A stretch of DNA of 64,000 bases from a bacterium BMS3Bbin09 (GCA_002897915.1 BDTS01000055.1:23479-87478), one strand, 5' to 3'; counted from the first letter of the stretch, positions 24,355 to 33,590 are shown. Translations and numbers: made by a program. Notes: a model not told the origin generated them from the letters alone.

Positions 24355-24885
24355 TTATTCATCTTCTCTGAACCTGCGCACCTCATCTTCCAGAAGAGCG
24401 TCCATTTCAGGATCAACATCATCAGGCACGGTCTCTTTTATACTGATCTTCTTACGCCACAGAATGAGAAAAATTCCAACCACCAGAAACAGGTCTAACA
24501 CCAGAAAATAAGGGAACCACCATGCAATGAAATAAAAACCTTTTTTCGACGGCTGCGTCAGAATTTTCGGGCCGTAAACGTCTTCAAAATAAGCAAGAAT
24601 CGATTCTTTACTTTCTCCCTTTGCAAGCCTGTCCTTAATAAGCTCCTTCATCTGGTCTGCCTGCGCGGAAGGGCAGTTGGTCAGCGTATAAACGTAATCG
24701 CATCCGGGACTCATGATCTCATCTGCAACTTCTTCAAGTTCCATACGGGATACTTCTCTCCCATAGGATGTATTTGGGCTTATAAAAATAAGCAAAAGCA
24801 AAAAACAAATTACTTTGTGCTGTATAATTCTTTTATGAATTTTCAGATCCTGTTTACACATAAAGTTCTCAACCCTTCCTGACAC
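24355..24885 (-). CDS. ccmH: Cytochrome c-type biogenesis protein CcmH/NrfF family
   Basis: It has the conserved GESKESILAYFEDVYGPKIL block and a C-terminal TM. The Cys pair is spaced CDYVYTLTNC (C-x8-C) rather than the canonical LRCxxC. Confidence 0.65.
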   Translation of the reverse strand: MSGRVENFMCKQDLKIHKRIIQHKVICFLLLLIFISPNTSYGREVSRMELEEVADEIMSPGCDYVYTLTNCPSAQADQMKELIKDRLAKGESKESILAYFEDVYGPKILTQPSKKGFYFIAWWFPYFLVLDLFLVVGIFLILWRKKISIKETVPDDVDPEMDALLEDEVRRFREDE

Positions 24886-25613
24886 TAAATAATAACAAAG
24901 TTAGGGAACAGCGCAACGAACCGTGTTATCATATTTGTCATAAGCATAATACCGAATACTATAAGGAGCAGCCCGCTTACAACCATGATCACTCTCATAT
25001 GCTTCATAAGTTTCTTTGAGTGAGTCAGGAACGTATTCATTGCGAGCGATGACAAAAGAAAGGGTATTCCAAGACCAATGGAATAGACCGAAAGGAGTTT
25101 AATCCCGTAAGTCACCGAACCCGACGAACCTGCATACATGAGTATGGAACCGAGTATCGGACCTATGCAGGGCGTCCATCCCGCCCCGAATGTCACTCCT
25201 ACTGCAAATGTCCCGACGTATCCCGCCGGTTTGAACTGCATATGGACTTTCTTTTCTTTCATTAGAAAGTCCAGCTTTAGAAAGCCCGCAACAAAGAGAC
25301 CAAAGATAATTATCAATGCCCCTCCAATGATCCTGATATGCTCCTGGTACATAAAGAAAAACTTTCCGACAACAGAGGATGACGCTCCAAGCAGAATAAA
25401 GATAAAAGAAAATCCAAGAATAAAAACAAGAGAGTTAGTCAGGGTCAGAAACCTTACCCTTGGCCTGTCAGCATTGCCGGTAAGGTCCTCGAAAGAAACA
25501 CCTGTTATGTATGAGACATAAGAGGGAAGCAATGGCAACACACAGGGAGAAAGAAAAGACAGTACCCCTGCGAAAAAAGCTAATGAATAGGATACTTCAG
25601 CATTAAAAGACAT
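24885..25613 (-). CDS. ccdA: Cytochrome c biogenesis thiol-disulfide transporter CcdA (DsbD core)
   Basis: Six TM helices with paired Cys (SPCVLPLLP, TPCIGPILG). Confidence 0.85.
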   Translation of the reverse strand: MSFNAEVSYSLAFFAGVLSFLSPCVLPLLPSYVSYITGVSFEDLTGNADRPRVRFLTLTNSLVFILGFSFIFILLGASSSVVGKFFFMYQEHIRIIGGALIIIFGLFVAGFLKLDFLMKEKKVHMQFKPAGYVGTFAVGVTFGAGWTPCIGPILGSILMYAGSSGSVTYGIKLLSVYSIGLGIPFLLSSLAMNTFLTHSKKLMKHMRVIMVVSGLLLIVFGIMLMTNMITRFVALFPNFVII

Positions 25614-25633
25614 AACTATAAACTCCTCGCCTT
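25591..25633. repeat. Direct repeat copy 1: a 43-bp exact match (imperfectly extended to ~60-75 bp) spanning the ccdA start codon and RBS
   Basis: It is identical to 26390-26432. The imperfect flank aatgaatag vs aatggataa extends the similarity. Confidence 0.9.
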
Positions 25634-25795
25634 AACTTTCCTCAAAGCAGTCAGGATAATAATTATCTCAAAAGTTAGATAATATTTATTACTCATTAAA
25701 ATTTCTCCTACGGCTACCTCAACTAGAGGTGTGTAATTAAATTTTGAAAAGGATGGTCAATGCCAAACACTGACCGGGGATAGGGGTTGCAAATA

Positions 25796-26218
25796 TCAAA
25801 TAATGAGGATAATTTTTTTGAGAGGCAAAAAAACTGAACTTAATAAAGTGCTTGGTTGCAGCGGACTATTCATCTTTTGAATTAGTGGTAAAGTTGCTTC
25901 TGGCAAAGCATGATATGATACCTCCTCTAAATGGGAATTTATTCGTTGGAGTGAAATGTCATTCTCTATGCCGGAACTGGTCAGGATTGGAATATCCAGA
26001 CAATCATTATGAATATTATTTTCCTGATTAAAGCTTAATACTCTATTATCTTCAGAAGGAAGGTCAGAAAATACTGAAGTATTATGATTGTTTTCAATAG
26101 CAATATGACCTTCATTTTCAACACACAATACAAATCCGTATAACGAACTTTGACTTAATGCTGTGTAGATTATGAGTAAAAATACAAGCGTTGATTTTAT
26201 CTTGAAATTACTAATCAT
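25796..26218 (-). CDS. Hypothetical small secreted protein (inside the 799-bp repeat-flanked insert)
   Basis: 140 aa with an N-terminal hydrophobic signal-like segment. The context is AT-rich and no family was recognised. Confidence 0.35.
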   Translation of the reverse strand: MISNFKIKSTLVFLLIIYTALSQSSLYGFVLCVENEGHIAIENNHNTSVFSDLPSEDNRVLSFNQENNIHNDCLDIPILTSSGIENDISLQRINSHLEEVSYHALPEATLPLIQKMNSPLQPSTLLSSVFLPLKKIILII

Positions 26219-26389
26219 ATATCAGTTTAAAAAATATCAGCGATCTGCCAGCAGGCAAATACAATGATTACTTTCATAATATAAAATTCCTGGTCTAATG
26301 TTGTCAATCTTTCTTCAGCAGTCGATCCGGCTTCATTATACCTTTAGTGTTTTGACGATCTAAAAGGGAAAAGTAAAGCCAATGGATAA

Positions 26390-26432
26390 GATACTTCAGC
26401 ATTAAAAGACATAACTATAAACTCCTCGCCTT
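26390..26432. repeat. Direct repeat copy 2: encodes the last 6 codons and stop of the cadA-like ATPase and, on the other strand, a truncated ccdA-like start (MSFNAEVSYPLALLFPF*)
   Basis: It is identical to 25591-25633, 799 bp away. Confidence 0.9.
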
Positions 26433-28379
26433 TACTCTCGTTAGCCTCATGGAATTTAAAATAACCGCAAGGCTTAATCCCATATCTCCCACAGCCACCG
26501 CAACCCATAGATTTATCAGTCCCAGCAAAGCCAGGATTGTAAGACTCCCTTTGATAAGTATCGAAAGAGATACATTCTGCTTTACAACGCGCATTGTCTT
26601 TCTGCTGAGATACATCAGGTAGTCGATCTTGCTCAGGTCATCATGCATCAGGGCTATGTCTGCTGTTTCTATTGCCACGTCTGTGCCGATGGCGCCCATG
26701 GCTATTCCTACATTGGCTACAGCAAGAGCTGGAGCATCGTTTACACCATCGCCCACCATTGCCACGCTGCCGAACTTTTTAACGAGTTTTTCAACGACCT
26801 TTACCTTGTCCTCAGGCAAAAGTTCCGCATGATATTCATCTATTCCGACTTTGCCGGCCAGAGAACCAGCAACTTTTTTGTTGTCGCCTGTAATCATTGC
26901 AGTCTTAATATGAAGCTTCTTAAGATCTGATATAACTTTAGGGGCCTTTTCTCTCAGGACATCTCCGAGGGCGATTGCTCCAATTGCCATATTTTCATTG
27001 GCTACAAATACAACAGTCTTTCCTTCACTTTCAAGCTGCGATATTTCTCCGGGAATCTCCATAGATAAGCCATTAAATAGGCTCCTTGCTCCTGCGTAAT
27101 ACTTTTGACCTCCGATAAGGGCTTCCAGCCCCCTGCCTTTGACTGCTCTGAACCTGCTGATTTCTTTAAGATGAATATTTTCCGCCCCGGCTTTCTTCAG
27201 GATTGCCTTTGCAATAGGATGTTCTGAACGTGACTCCAGGGTAGCAGTCATAGAGAGCACTTCTTCACTGGAATGACCGTTAAAGCCGATAATGTCCGTA
27301 ACTTCCAGCTTTCCTTTCGTTAAAGTACCGGTTTTGTCAAAGGCAATGACTTTGACCTTACTAAGCTCTTCAAGGTAAGAGGCCCCTTTAATTAACACAC
27401 CATGTCTTGCCGAGCTGGTCAGTGCCGATACCATGGCAACCGGCGTTGATATGGCCAGTGCACAGGGACATGAAATGACTAAAAGCACCAGGGAGCGGTA
27501 AAACCATATTTCCCATGAATATCCCAAAATAAATGTCGGAACAAGAAATGCTCCAAATGCAAGAATGATCACTACAGGAGTATAGTAGCGGGCAAATTTA
27601 TCGATGAACTTTTCGGTCTCTGATTTTTTTCTCTCAGCCTCTTCAACGAGTTTGACAATCCTCGAAAGTACAGTATCTTCGGACTTTCTGGTAACACTCA
27701 CCTCCAAATAGCCCTCTTCATTCATGGTGCCTGCATACACTTCATCCCCCACTTCCTTTTCAACCGGAAGCGATTCTCCTGTAATAGGCGACTCATTGAT
27801 GGATGAATGGCCGGTTAAAACCTTTCCGTCCAGCGGTATTTTTTCTCCGGGACGGATTACTGTAATATCTCCGATTATTATTTCATGTACGTGGAGCTCG
27901 ATTTCCTTCCCGCCCCTCTTCACTTTTGCTGTTTCGGGAGCCAACTTCAGCAGCTGGCTTATTGATTTCTTTGCTTTATCGGCCGCATACTCTTCCAGGG
28001 TTTCAGCGACAAAAAACAGGAAGACAACTGCAGCTCCTTCCTCACCGTGTCCGATGAAAAATGAGCCGAAAGCCGCAATACCTATAAGACAATTAATGTC
28101 CAGCCGCCGTTTTAGAATTGAACGCCCGGCCTTCTTCAGGATGTCTCTTCCTGAAACGGCAATGACGGACATGAATACAATCTGTGCAGGAATATTCAGG
28201 GCCGTGAAAAATTCAAGCATTAACCCGGATATCAAAAGCGCTGCCGCTATCCCGCCGGCAGTCAATTGCTGGCGCATCCAGAGCGGCGACTTTTCTTCCG
28301 CATTGCCACCGCCGCAGGAACAGGCAGATTCCTCCCGGCAGGAGTCGTTGTTCATTATTTCGAGCTTTGTGTTTTGCAT
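26415..28379 (-). CDS. Heavy-metal-translocating P1B-type ATPase (Cd/Zn/Pb CadA/ZntA-like)
   Basis: It has DKTGTLT, TGDN, GDGVNDAPAL and a transmembrane SCPCALAIS (CPC) motif. The N-terminus is Cys-rich (CREESACSCGGG) and there is no canonical GMTCxxC HMA domain. It lies downstream of a CadC-like repressor gene. Confidence 0.9.
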   Translation of the reverse strand: MQNTKLEIMNNDSCREESACSCGGGNAEEKSPLWMRQQLTAGGIAAALLISGLMLEFFTALNIPAQIVFMSVIAVSGRDILKKAGRSILKRRLDINCLIGIAAFGSFFIGHGEEGAAVVFLFFVAETLEEYAADKAKKSISQLLKLAPETAKVKRGGKEIELHVHEIIIGDITVIRPGEKIPLDGKVLTGHSSINESPITGESLPVEKEVGDEVYAGTMNEEGYLEVSVTRKSEDTVLSRIVKLVEEAERKKSETEKFIDKFARYYTPVVIILAFGAFLVPTFILGYSWEIWFYRSLVLLVISCPCALAISTPVAMVSALTSSARHGVLIKGASYLEELSKVKVIAFDKTGTLTKGKLEVTDIIGFNGHSSEEVLSMTATLESRSEHPIAKAILKKAGAENIHLKEISRFRAVKGRGLEALIGGQKYYAGARSLFNGLSMEIPGEISQLESEGKTVVFVANENMAIGAIALGDVLREKAPKVISDLKKLHIKTAMITGDNKKVAGSLAGKVGIDEYHAELLPEDKVKVVEKLVKKFGSVAMVGDGVNDAPALAVANVGIAMGAIGTDVAIETADIALMHDDLSKIDYLMYLSRKTMRVVKQNVSLSILIKGSLTILALLGLINLWVAVAVGDMGLSLAVILNSMRLTRVKARSL

Positions 28380-28480: not shown

Positions 28481-28843
28481 CTATTCCCTTACGTGCTTTA
28501 GCCCCTGGTCAAAAAGCCTTTTTATGTGCTTGTCATCCAGTGAGTAATAGACCCTCTTAGACTCTTTTCTGAATTTAACGAGCCTCAGGTTCCGCAGGAT
28601 TCTCAACTGGTGGGAAATAGCGGAAATACTGCCTCCGAGGATGCTTGCTATGTCGCATACGCAAAGTTCTTCTTTAGAAAGGGCATAGATTATCTTTAGC
28701 CTTGAAGAGTCGGCCAGCACACCAAATATCTCCGATAAGCTATAAACGTCTTTATCAGAGAGCATTACTTTTTTTACTGCTTTGACCTTTGCTTTATCTA
28801 CAGTCTTGACTTCACATACATCCTGCTGCTTTTTTGCGGCCAT
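28481..28843 (-). CDS. ArsR/SmtB-family metalloregulator, CadC-like
   Basis: It has the ELCVCDIASILG..SHQLRILR wHTH with the alpha3 CVC metal site, and is close to S. aureus CadC over the DNA-binding core. The start is set at ATG (MAAKKQQ) preceded by the AAGGAGG RBS; the TTG-extended ORF would overlap the operator. Confidence 0.8.
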   Translation of the reverse strand: MAAKKQQDVCEVKTVDKAKVKAVKKVMLSDKDVYSLSEIFGVLADSSRLKIIYALSKEELCVCDIASILGGSISAISHQLRILRNLRLVKFRKESKRVYYSLDDKHIKRLFDQGLKHVRE

Positions 28844-28858
28844 CAGAAGACCTCCTTG

Positions 28859-28882
28859 ATATTTGAACAATTGTTCAAGTAT
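28859..28882. promoter_or_regulatory. 12-12 inverted repeat ATATTTGAACAA|TTGTTCAAGTAT, a candidate ArsR/SmtB (CadC-type) operator
   Basis: 23 of 24 positions are palindromic, with a TGAACA-TGTTCA core typical of ArsR/SmtB operators. It lies 16 bp upstream of the cadC-like ATG. Confidence 0.6.
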
Positions 28883-30763: not shown

Positions 30764-31030
30764 CTATGCACCGCTTAATTCGGCTTTATAAATGTCGCAA
30801 GCATTCGTTTGATTTCTATGACAACGCTTATAAGGTTGCCATAATCTGTTTGACTCAGCATTTCGAGATCCTTTATAAGCAATATTAGTAGGGATTGAAG
30901 CAGCGGCACGCCGAATCTGACTTGTCAGACCATGTAATTCGTTTTTCGGAAAAGAGGTTGTTACATGATATACTTCCCTAGTTAATTTGTGTGCTTTTAC
31001 CCACACTTTGAGTTGTTTGAAATCTTTCAA
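30764..31030 (-). pseudogene. Four-helix-bundle protein (23S rRNA IVS / Avd-like family) disrupted by an internal deletion plus frameshift
   Basis: The N-terminal 52 aa (MKDFKQLKVWVKAHKLTREVYHVTTSFPKNELHGLTSQIRRAAASIPTNIA) match the family. The family C-terminus (DLEMLSQTDYGNLISVVIEIKRMLATFIKPN) is readable only in the +1 frame after a ~17-codon gap. The start is TTG. Confidence 0.65.
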
Positions 31031-31616
31031 TATTCGCCCGGTTTATTCTTTTGCTGAACGCTGACAGCTGAAAACTGATAGCTTTTAGAAATGCCTGGTT
31101 CTGCGTAGAGGCAGATACCCTTTTCTTCAATGCCAGATATGTGAGATAGTCTTTCACATCAGCGGAATCCATACTAATAGCATCCGCCTGTTTCACCTTC
31201 ACATCCTTTATGTAATCAAAAAAACATTTCAACCAATATGTATATGTTTGTTCAGTCCTGTACGAATAATGCCTTATACGAATCGCCTCTCGCACCTTAT
31301 CAATCAGGCTTTTGATATCATGCCGAGAACATACCGCTTTAACGTTCCTATTGTTGTTAATTGCAGGATCAACATGATTGAAATACAAACGAACAGCATC
31401 ATGCGCCTGTCTTATTTGCCAATCAGCTATTTTGTTTTGAGTCGCAAGATAATTGATGAACTTTTCCACTTGCAAAGCTTGATTTAACTCCTTGTTATTA
31501 TTAGAAAAAGCCAAGAATTTACTTGCCCAATTAGCGTAATATGTGATATATTTCTCTTGGACAAGGCACTTGGTACGCAAATACTTCTGATAATCAGGTA
31601 ACAAGTCGTTATTCAT
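30978..31616 (-). pseudogene. Tyrosine recombinase fragment: two tandem N-terminal SAM-like/core-binding domains, with the catalytic domain missing
   Basis: The second domain (IRHYSYRTEQTYTYWLKCFFDYI...KRVSASTQNQAFLKAISF) aligns well to the IntI/XerD N-domain (HYSxRTEQxYxxW...KVSxSTxxQA). No R..HxxR..Y catalytic domain follows; the ORF runs into the four-helix-bundle pseudogene. Confidence 0.6.
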
Positions 31617-32167: not shown

Positions 32168-33590
32168 GAGAATGTCAAGTTTTTAGTTGAAACTGTCTGA
32201 GTGGCTCTCATCTTCATCTCGTATTTTTATGCAGCCTTCCTGTCAATTAATTCTTTGTTCTGCTGAGTTTCGATATTTTTTATAACCTCAGGAATTGAAG
32301 CGTAGCCTTTGATCCGCCTGAACCTTTTTTCACTGTATACAAGAACCGATGCCAGCCAGCGCTGCATCATCCTGCTGTTACGGTACCGCTTGATATTACC
32401 CTCAGCATCTCTCACTATGGAAAACATACTCTCTATAGGATTGGTAGAATGCAGAGTCTTTCTCAGCAAGCCTGGTACTTTAAGCTTGTGAACGGTGAGA
32501 ATCTCTTCTATAGCTTCCATAAGAGAATCAGCTGCCGACTCATTGATGCTGCGCAGCCACTTCTCCATATCCAATAACATCTGACGGGCATCTTCATAAC
32601 TGTTTTGCTCCAAGGCCGTCCTGAATAGACGATGCGCTTTTTTTCGGTACTTTTTTGCCAGATGCCTCTGAATGTTTTTATCTTTATGAATAGTACACCG
32701 CTGGTGAATCAGCTTCTTGCCAAATCGCTTACGCAATGCCTTGATAATTCCCTTGCCTCCATCCGTGATACAGATGATATGCCGGCTCACTTTCAATCCG
32801 CGCCTCTCCATATCCCCAAATAGCTCTTCACATATCTCATGATTCTCCGTCGCTCCCTGCCAGAATCCCAATACCTTCTTTATTCCTTCTGTATCAATCC
32901 CCAGTCCGATTATGAATGCCTCCCCTCCACGATGGATCGTATCAAGAAATATCGCAAAAGGTTTATATTCCGATAATGACCGCTCCTTAAATTCCCGCAG
33001 CTGCTTTGCCGTTGCCTCAACTATATGCCTGGATACTGATCCGGCTGACACTCCAAATGCCCCTGCCGCATCCACCACCGTCTCTGCATACTTCCGGCAT
33101 GATATTCCTCTCAATACCTTATTCAGAAGCTCCTGTGAAAACTGCTCCCGTTCCTTCAGCTTTCTGTAACTCCTTAACTCTATCTCCCCCTCTGGCCCTC
33201 GAAGGCGCGGGTGCTGCACCCTTATCTTCTGATCTCCTATATAGACTGATCCGGGCTGGCTTGCCCACTTATATACATCAGGACTCAATGGCTGATATTC
33301 AGGTCCTGCAATCTCCTCCCGCTCTATATACATGATCGTCTCTGCCATCATCCTTCCAATTCCCTTCATGTATACATCAAATCCGGCTTTGCCCTTTGCA
33401 TATATTTCATACATCTGCTCCAGTATCTCCTGTTTACCCAATGCTTCTTCCATCCCTCTTGTTGCTTTTTTTCTCTTCTTTGTGCTTTTCTTCATTAGTG
33501 GCTCCTCCTTTTTAAGGATATTGGTTACCCGTGGATTATATCCACGGGGGAGCCACTCTTTCAACTTTCAACTAAGAATAGTATATCCTC
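32168..33590 (-). mobile_element. IS256 (Mutator) family insertion sequence, 1423 bp, with ~40-bp imperfect terminal inverted repeats and an 8-bp target-site duplication ACAGTTTC
   Basis: The TSD copies are at 32160-32167 and 33591-33598. The ends read GAGAATGTCAAGTTTTTAGTTGAAACTGTCTGAGTGGCTC and, reverse-complemented, GAGGATATACTATTCTTAGTTGAAAGTTGAAAGAGTGGCTC. It carries a single transposase ORF. Confidence 0.8.
32227..33495 (-). CDS. IS256-family (mutator-type) DDE transposase
   Basis: Family motifs are present (LDTIH, ITDGGKGI, HQRCTIHKDKN, HSTNPIESMFSIVR). The start is taken at MKKSTKKRKK; the longer ORF would read through the right inverted repeat. Confidence 0.8.
   Translation of the reverse strand: MKKSTKKRKKATRGMEEALGKQEILEQMYEIYAKGKAGFDVYMKGIGRMMAETIMYIEREEIAGPEYQPLSPDVYKWASQPGSVYIGDQKIRVQHPRLRGPEGEIELRSYRKLKEREQFSQELLNKVLRGISCRKYAETVVDAAGAFGVSAGSVSRHIVEATAKQLREFKERSLSEYKPFAIFLDTIHRGGEAFIIGLGIDTEGIKKVLGFWQGATENHEICEELFGDMERRGLKVSRHIICITDGGKGIIKALRKRFGKKLIHQRCTIHKDKNIQRHLAKKYRKKAHRLFRTALEQNSYEDARQMLLDMEKWLRSINESAADSLMEAIEEILTVHKLKVPGLLRKTLHSTNPIESMFSIVRDAEGNIKRYRNSRMMQRWLASVLVYSEKRFRRIKGYASIPEVIKNIETQQNKELIDRKAA

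Follow-up and report, generated by a model that had tools for sequence, protein, structure and literature searches.

Integrative and cis-mobilisable elements bounded by att sites are flanked by repeats that restore the end of the targeted gene, and insertion sequences (IS) and miniature inverted-repeat transposable elements (MITEs) generate short target-site duplications of 2-15 bp. Here we describe an insert between the genes of a P1B-type heavy-metal ATPase and of CcdA in a 64,000-nucleotide stretch of bacterium BMS3Bbin09, an uncultured member of the Nitrospirota (GCA_002897915.1, BDTS01000055.1:23479-87478; the whole stretch is termed the window), where the junction of the two genes is duplicated and the DNA between the two copies carries a small gene, termed orf140. 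Three described systems lend themselves to comparison with this locus. Phage morons are independent promoter-gene-terminator units that sit between two genes (PMC3594210). The minimal mobile elements of Neisseria, as they are presented in PMC3787668 after Saunders and Snyder 2002, are variable cassettes located between conserved flanking genes and exchanged by homologous recombination. CzcI of Cupriavidus metallidurans is a small periplasmic protein that is encoded upstream of czcCBA and quenches CzcCBA (PMC10127602).

Comparison with relatives revealed a well-supported insertion polymorphism between the ATPase gene and ccdA. In six lineages the ATPase gene directly precedes ccdA, leaving an empty site: L012 (bacterium BMS3Bbin08), L015 (a Nitrospiraceae metagenome-assembled genome, MAG), L027, L028/L029 (BMS3Abin10), L031 and L032. 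Their junction reads ...GTAAAGGAGGTyrGTTAATAATT-ATG, with a strong AAGGAGG Shine-Dalgarno (SD) sequence inside the ATPase tail and the ATPase stop 5-9 nt before the ccdA ATG. A first reading of the window, made from its sequence only (the sequence-only reading), had proposed that the two genes were once adjacent and overlapping; the six empty lineages bear out the adjacency, and the 5-9 nt spacing speaks against the overlap. The filled site is found in the window and in three diverged relatives from other metagenomes. L019 (VAPC010479687) possesses both repeat copies, the leader, orf140, the trailer and ccdA; L018 possesses the leader, orf140, the trailer, copy 1 and ccdA; and L017 possesses the ATPase end, orf140, the trailer, copy 1 and ccdA, with a single copy of the repeat. 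The insert measures 734 bp in the window and 640-734 bp among the filled lineages, which differ from each other by 6-19% in ccdA. Filled and empty alleles occur in lineages 8-11% apart in ccdA, and also within the same metagenomes.

The insert is flanked by two 65-nt direct repeats with 60 of 65 identical positions (92%), which lie 799 nt apart from start to start, as found in a repeat search of the 64-kb window. They contain the 43-nt exact repeat with degenerate extensions (25591-25633 and 26390-26432) that the sequence-only reading had pointed out; this core occurs exactly twice in the window, compared to 0 of 100 shuffles. On the minus strand, copy 2 ends the ATPase with ...RLTRVKARSL and a stop codon, followed by a ccdA-like start. 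The resulting ccdA-like open reading frame (ORF), previously given as 17 codons, has 22 codons in the window and approximately 35 in L019, and it is probably a non-functional remnant. In copy 1, the frame upstream of the ccdA start reads ...LRKVKARSL and a stop codon, in agreement with the decayed ATPase C-terminus noticed earlier, and this stop is separated from the ccdA ATG by 2 nt, compared to 5-9 nt in the empty-site relatives. The ATPase tail and stop serve no purpose in copy 1, nor do the 13 ccdA codons in copy 2, and the two copies are footprints of a duplication rather than convergent signals. The segment between them is AT-rich as first described, with a GC content of 0.33 against 0.43-0.46 in the flanking genes, and the third codon positions of orf140 have a GC content of 0.26 against 0.46. 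Together with the six empty-site lineages, the footprints in both copies support the earlier proposal that the junction was duplicated when a segment with a small secreted-protein ORF was inserted.

Judged from its sequence, the insert is a unit in which promoter-like and terminator-like signals of its own surround orf140, and these signals are conserved across lineages. The sigma-70-like promoter of orf140 is identical in L019, and L018 keeps both hexamers with a changed spacer. The terminator-like hairpin is conserved at 21 of 21 positions in all four insert-bearing lineages, and was found nowhere else in the window or at the other loci. The trailer around the hairpin is 77-87% identical between the more distant lineages and 93% identical between L017 and L019. 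Compared with the last approximately 115 nt of the ATPase gene, the trailer shows a similarity of z = 2.5 (23/1000 shuffles, p of about 0.02), a weak hint that it may include a decayed duplicate of this stretch, in which case the original duplication would have spanned approximately 155 bp. A search of the insert against Rfam gave no match at E <= 1. In L017 (230-260), a deletion of approximately 210 bp (window 26429-26220) removed the core of copy 2, the pseudo-ccdA start and the orf140 promoter, so that its ATPase ends with ...RVKYD and a stop codon that overlaps the orf140 ATG (GTAAAGTATGATTAG); orf140 is retained, to judge by its sequence, and placed directly behind the ATPase gene. Relatives with the insert and without the repeats had been regarded as contrary to the proposed insertion, and L017 indeed has one copy only; however, its close sister L019 has the full leader and both copies, and the L017 state is therefore derived.

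Table 1. Features of the ATPase-ccdA interval and its neighbors, in window positions.
Feature	Position	Strand	Basis or remark
ccdA, downstream flank of insert, first gene of the ccdA-ccmH-resA-ccmE-ccmF cytochrome c maturation cluster	24885..25613	-	DsbD_TM, PF02683, 67.7 bits
Repeat copy 1: ATPase-tail-like remnant, then functional ccdA SD, ATG and first 13 codons	25576..25640	-	Translation, repeat search
Mini-ORF, 26 codons (MSNKYYLTFEIIIILTALRKVKARSL, then stop), GGAG SD, ends at duplicated ATPase stop 2 nt before ccdA ATG	25616..25696	-	ORF translation
Insert trailer	25641..25795	-	Alignment of filled lineages
Terminator-like hairpin GGTCAGTGTTTGGCATTGACC, then T-rich tract	25755..25775	-	After orf140
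orf140, 140 aa, signal-peptide-like N-terminus	25796..26218	-	ORF call, family alignment
Insert leader	26219..26374	-	90% identical to L019, 75% to L018, absent in L017
Sigma-70-like promoter for orf140: TTGACA, 18 nt, TATATT, 11/12 matches	26278..26307	-	Pattern match
Pseudo-ccdA start, 22-codon ORF (MSFNAEVSYPLALLFPFRSSKH, then stop)	26344..26412	-	ORF translation
Repeat copy 2: last 8 ATPase codons and TAG, TT, ccdA-like SD, ATG and 13 codons	26375..26439	-	Translation, repeat search
P1B-type heavy-metal ATPase (Zn/Cd/Pb-type, CPC motif, without HMA domain), upstream flank of insert	26415..28379	-	Pfam E1-E2_ATPase and Hydrolase
ArsR/SmtB metalloregulator gene, upstream of ATPase	28481..28870	-	Profile match

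Alignment of the filled lineages shows that orf140 is under purifying selection, with dN/dS of 0.14-0.32, and is a real gene. Its invariant residues are VLC32, H38, E42, C73, D75 and P77, arranged in the motifs VLC..GH..E and C.DIP, in addition to a C-terminal ...ILLI. Looked for elsewhere, the 140-aa protein has close homologues only at the ATPase-ccdA locus, and its further relatives are ten distant small proteins detected by profile. The profile search covered 1.84 billion representative proteins and gave 12 matches at E <= 0.001, one of which (P0001) is the query family's own representative. Another match (P0009, 954 aa) is a DUF5666 repeat protein, looks spurious and was rejected as a relative. 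The remaining ten matches are 138-164 aa long and share a signal-peptide-like N-terminus, the invariant V-L-C32, H38, E42, C73, D75 and P77, and a C-terminal ...T-x-I-L-L-I. No curated family in Pfam-A or NCBIfam matched orf140 or its relatives at E < 0.01, and no sequence match was found in the PDB. In the AlphaFold model with a pLDDT of 52, the residues C32, H38 and E42 are located on a β-hairpin beside the strand that bears C73 and D75.

Distant members of the orf140 family adjoin metal-efflux genes in all three of the contexts looked up. In L020 the gene is directly upstream of OEP-CzcB-ACR_tran genes; in L025 it sits between a YHS-domain gene and an OEP gene; and in L023 it lies beside a resistance-nodulation-division (RND) fragment and a P-type ATPase with an HMA domain. 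These residues and neighborhoods, together with the coupling of orf140 to the ATPase gene in L017, point to orf140 as a putative periplasmic Cys/His metal-binding accessory of metal efflux. Just upstream of distant orf140-family genes in neighborhoods of the czcCBA type there is also a recurrent ORF of 91-102 aa resembling CBM_48/AMPK1_CBM (L020:5097-5372, L021:1265-1540, L023:713-1021 and L024:45-353). This small ORF, which is absent from the window, may be a further conserved partner of the family.

The near-perfect repeat of the window is not a fresh insertion scar, as the duplication is old and predates the split of at least four lineages. In L019, copy 1 and copy 2 are identical at only 51 of 66 positions (77%), with an indel between them in the SD region, against 60 of 65 identical positions in the window. 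Copy 2 of L019 resembles an empty junction, being 86% identical to L015, with an AAGGAGG SD and the ATPase tail ...SRVKGG before the stop. By contrast, copy 2 of the window resembles copy 1, with 91% identity to copy 1 of L018 and with AAGGCGAGGAGTTTATAGTT. Codon 2 of ccdA is a derived TCT in both copies of the window and TCG in every relative. Orthologous copies differ between lineages at approximately 6-8 of the 43 core positions, as counted from the alignments. Paralogues of such age would be expected to differ, and we therefore read the exact 43-nt core as the product of later gene conversion. The simplest reading is that copy 2 on the ATPase side was converted by copy 1 on the ccdA side in the lineage of the window, and this conversion would also have rewritten the ATPase C-terminus to ...RVKARSL. 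A further observation concerns L019 (100-165) and L015 (3200-3260): the filled L019 has the ...LSRVKGG tail that is typical of the empty L015, and the remaining 3' end of its ATPase gene is window-like. This local mosaic indicates that filled and empty lineages have recombined directly at the junction.

The distribution of the insert does not follow the ccdA tree. Neighbor-joining bootstrap analysis of ccdA nt 40-495 (456 sites), evaluated by split counting, placed the window, L017, L015+L013 and L027 in a clade excluding the filled L018 with 98% support, whereas monophyly of the filled lineages received 0.9%. Two empty lineages are nested among filled ones, and the deeper L012/L028, L031 and L032 are empty. 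L015 (at its 3' end) and L013 (at its 5' end) are two contigs of one MAG (CAZVHL01) broken inside ccdA, and a composite ccdA was built from their exact 55-nt overlap; strain variation is possibly the reason for this assembly break in an empty-site lineage. Given the nested empty lineages, the cassette was either gained once and lost precisely in one or two lineages, or moved between lineages. The flanking repeats are an obvious substrate for precise deletion, and the nested empty alleles would be the outcome either of such a deletion from one repeat to the other, or of homologous recombination in the flanking genes that exchanged one allele for another. Along ccdA, the window and L018 differ at 5 of the first 60 nt, then at 15 of 60, and later at 4 of 90, a mosaic divergence that indicates probable recombination. 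Where L018 or the window is one member of the pair, orf140 has a lower dS (0.18-0.32) than ccdA (0.40-0.89), and the pair L017-L019 shows the opposite pattern, with an insert more diverged than ccdA. Because of the mosaic ccdA, the low dS of orf140 for some pairs and the co-occurrence in the same metagenomes, homologous exchange of the cassette through the flanking genes is plausible.

In the ancestor of this Nitrospirota clade, only a few nt separated the ATPase stop from the ccdA start downstream, and the ATPase tail contained the ccdA SD. A segment of foreign, AT-rich DNA, 640-734 bp long, then entered the junction with duplication of approximately 65 bp, from ATPase codon -8 to ccdA codon +13, and owing to this duplication both flanking genes stayed intact. 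L017 has since lost copy 2 and the promoter. In the account that we favor, the copies would later have been homogenized in the lineage of the window by conversion of the ATPase-side copy with the ccdA-side copy, and the insert would have been precisely lost or exchanged as an allele in some lineages. Taken as a whole, this junction duplication-insertion of an orf140 unit followed by conversion and loss or exchange is, in our judgment, somewhat probable. More tentatively, the founding event may have been a one-off duplication-insertion, in which a staggered break, or replicative template switching, allowed the capture of foreign DNA with duplication of at least 65 bp, rather than a transposition or a site-specific integration. 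A one-off event is favored because the usual signatures of mobile elements were not found. No pair of terminal inverted repeats has its arms at the two ends of the insert, no recombinase is encoded between the repeats (orf140 is the only insert ORF found in ORF and profile scans), and no further copy of the element was detected in the window. An origin from a phage or a plasmid was rejected, as no relatives were found in viral contigs or plasmids, the family profile A3 being too divergent for a pattern scan of the viral sequences.

Several points weigh against parts of this account. No donor sequence of the insert was found, and a circle integrating in Campbell fashion would likewise produce a flanking duplication of at least 65 bp. 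An insert that was recently excised and re-integrated in the lineage of the window would give the same pattern as gene conversion. The ccdA tree rests on 456 sites of a recombining gene, and the contig of L018 begins inside the leader, so its copy-2 region is unseen. The terminator-like hairpin lies directly upstream of ccdA, which bears on how the ccdA-ccm genes are transcribed; a sigma-70-like promoter for ccdA was looked for in the trailer and not found. For orf140 itself, the AlphaFold models are of low confidence, with a pLDDT of 32 for 3 sequences and 52 for 13 sequences, and its metal-binding role is read only from the invariant Cys, His, Glu and Asp residues and the gene neighborhood.

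The alternative that survives best is Campbell-type integration, in which a small circle bearing a copy of the junction and orf140 recombined into the chromosomal junction, through RecA acting over at least 65 bp or a tyrosine recombinase supplied in trans, and can excise and re-integrate at the empty junctions of related genomes, in the manner of a cis-mobilisable element that has no recombinase. We consider it unlikely but worth keeping in view. In having an exact core between imperfect flanks, the direct repeats resemble attL and attR, and the insert leaves both flanking genes restored, a trait of elements targeted to the ends of genes. The patchy distribution of filled and empty sites off the ccdA tree, their presence in the same metagenomes, the lower dS of orf140 and the jump in window-L018 divergence after nt 60 of ccdA are in line with such traffic, and a truncated integron-type integrase ORF is located 4.6 kb off. 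However, this nearby fragment has no catalytic domain and no recombinase lies within the repeats, and the core differs between lineages, as seen in the indel-bearing copies of L019, unlike the core site of a recombinase. The more diverged insert of the L017-L019 pair makes the signal of a younger insert inconsistent. Moreover, a circle in which the junction stands beside orf140 presupposes the very arrangement to be explained, and would account for its spread and loss, not for its origin. A variant that we hold to be rather improbable is that the junction duplicate serves as a recombinase-free attachment site, where RecA excises an orf140 circle that re-integrates by single crossover in the ATPase-ccdA junctions of co-occurring relatives. 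If this were true, the cassette would hop among Nitrospirota populations in metal-sulfide habitats without a dedicated mobility gene, and would carry an undescribed periplasmic metal-binding protein that modulates metal efflux.

A transposable element, either a MITE or IS remnant or a cassette placed by the neighboring integron-type integrase, is very unlikely. It could be suspected from the single small ORF, which is reminiscent of integron cargo, and from an integron-integrase-like N-terminal fragment and an IS256-family transposase 4.6-7 kb upstream. An IS or MITE was nevertheless ruled out, since terminal inverted repeats are missing at the insert ends, the 65-bp duplication far exceeds IS target-site duplications, no transposase is encoded inside, and the window holds no other copy. 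An integron cassette was ruled out as well: there is no attC-like imperfect palindrome (the fold of the trailer has z = -1.76), no GTTRRRY core site at the boundaries and no attI context, the integrase is only a truncated fragment, and the promoter-like site of the cassette itself is unlike typical integron cassettes. An even poorer candidate is an ancestral insert, in which all empty sites are deletions and the repeat is the same translation-initiation sequence recruited twice; precise loss does happen or is mimicked in the empty lineages nested among filled ones, but the deeper-branching lineages are all empty, the ATPase tail and stop in copy 1 and the ccdA codons in copy 2 are footprints of duplication, and the base composition is foreign to its surroundings.

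The weakest explanation is the assembly collapse that the sequence-only reading had left as an alternative, i.e. a chimeric join or repeat-induced misassembly; although the window was taken from a MAG, this is effectively excluded, as nine contigs, drawn from SPAdes-type and MEGAHIT-type assemblies and from two assemblies in GenBank, match the window with 100% identity over 1401 bp across both repeats, the contig ids name final k-mers (k127) that exceed the 43-65 nt repeat in length, and L017, L018 and L019 have the insert at the same place with scattered substitutions and with orf140 under purifying selection. The nine contigs were collected through exact-protein look-ups and include ERZ1742236, ERZ1742237, ERZ1742238, ERZ909564 and ERZ909565 from the European Nucleotide Archive (ENA) and BDTB01000197 and DREV01000194 from GenBank; their names are SPAdes-style and MEGAHIT k127, and they represent independent assemblies, perhaps of one sampling project, rather than independent samples.

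None of the four filled lineages interrupts the mini-ORF that runs to the duplicated ATPase stop; its start is ATG or GTG, and its peptide is not conserved. Selection on the peptide was rejected, since the variable sites in the alignment of the four sequences number 6, 12 and 6 over codon positions 1, 2 and 3, respectively. That no in-frame stop occurs departs only weakly from chance (P = 0.03-0.13 per lineage); as a matter of speculation, the mini-ORF may keep a terminate-and-restart geometry for ccdA.

On the minus strand, the locus is arranged in the order of arsR, the ATPase gene, orf140 and ccdA, followed by ccmH-resA-ccmE-ccmF. The ATPase exceeds the cut-offs of the NCBIfam models TIGR01525 (628 bits, cut-off 346) and TIGR01512 (530 bits, cut-off 313) and stays below the CadA and ZntA equivalog cut-offs, so that its metal specificity can only be presumed. 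The promoter of arsR consists of TTGACA (28907-28902) and TATACT (28883-28878), and it is followed by the perfect palindrome TTGAACAATTGTTCAA at 28878-28863 on the minus strand, which is a likely ArsR/SmtB operator; an operator common to the arsR promoter and the orf140 leader was looked for, and none was seen in the leader. The true start of ccmH (24355-24885, minus strand) is uncertain, as gene callers give 129, 148, 168 or 176 aa on identical or near-identical contigs. In the more distant relatives L010 (480-700) and L011 (5090-6000), IHF, a MerR-like gene and a tRNA stand before ccdA in place of arsR-ATPase, so that the arsR-ATPase module is in turn an addition specific to the clade, placed directly upstream of ccdA. 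No tRNA gene was detected in the 64-kb window, and a tRNA-targeted island was ruled out, the tRNA before ccdA being confined to L010 and L011. Further upstream, a 212-aa ORF (30978-31616, minus strand) corresponds to an integron-type tyrosine recombinase (TIGR02249, 71 bits, cut-off 265) in the N-terminal SAM-like domain alone, being truncated before any catalytic domain, and an IS256-family transposase (32227-33564, minus strand; NF033543, 217 bits) adjoins it. No tie between these two ORFs and the insert was found.

The most useful lead from this locus is the orf140 family, a rare and unannotated group of small, predicted exported Cys/His proteins, which is a candidate for a new accessory or regulatory part in the metal resistance of bacteria from metal-rich habitats. 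Like CzcI, distant family members are small and predicted to be exported, contain Cys and His, and are encoded directly upstream of an OEP-CzcB-CzcA operon. Unlike CzcI, orf140 of the window is located next to a P-type ATPase rather than an RND pump, and no sequence homology is detectable; homology to CzcI was rejected after hhalign of the family profile A3 against CzcI (L026:25176-25520) returned a probability of 0.3% and E = 0.23.

As an inserted unit, orf140 resembles a moron in being a single accessory gene between adjacent co-oriented genes, with a promoter-like site and a terminator-like hairpin recognized from sequence, in having a base composition different from its neighbors, and in being absent from close relatives. 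It differs from morons in that the insert is not in a phage and has no relatives in viral contigs, its neighbors being arsR, the ATPase gene and ccm genes, and in that a duplicated junction of approximately 65 bp is not part of the moron definition. Compared to att-flanked elements, direct repeats likewise flank the insert and one copy keeps each neighboring gene end intact, whereas the insert lacks an integrase, its core is only 77% identical in L019, and the element is smaller than 1 kb. The minimal mobile elements share with this locus a gene content that varies among close relatives at one fixed position framed by conserved genes, the lack of a recombinase, and a mosaic divergence of the flanks that is compatible with homologous exchange; the duplicated junction sets the cassette apart, since flanking direct repeats do not figure in the definition quoted in PMC3787668. 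Altogether, the mechanism class is already known, and the locus is a tidy, fairly ordinary case of gene gain and loss that does not overturn current understanding. It offers a clean natural record of an accessory gene added to a tightly packed operon without damage to its neighbors, whose junction was duplicated, apparently homogenized, precisely lost in some lineages and rewired in L017.

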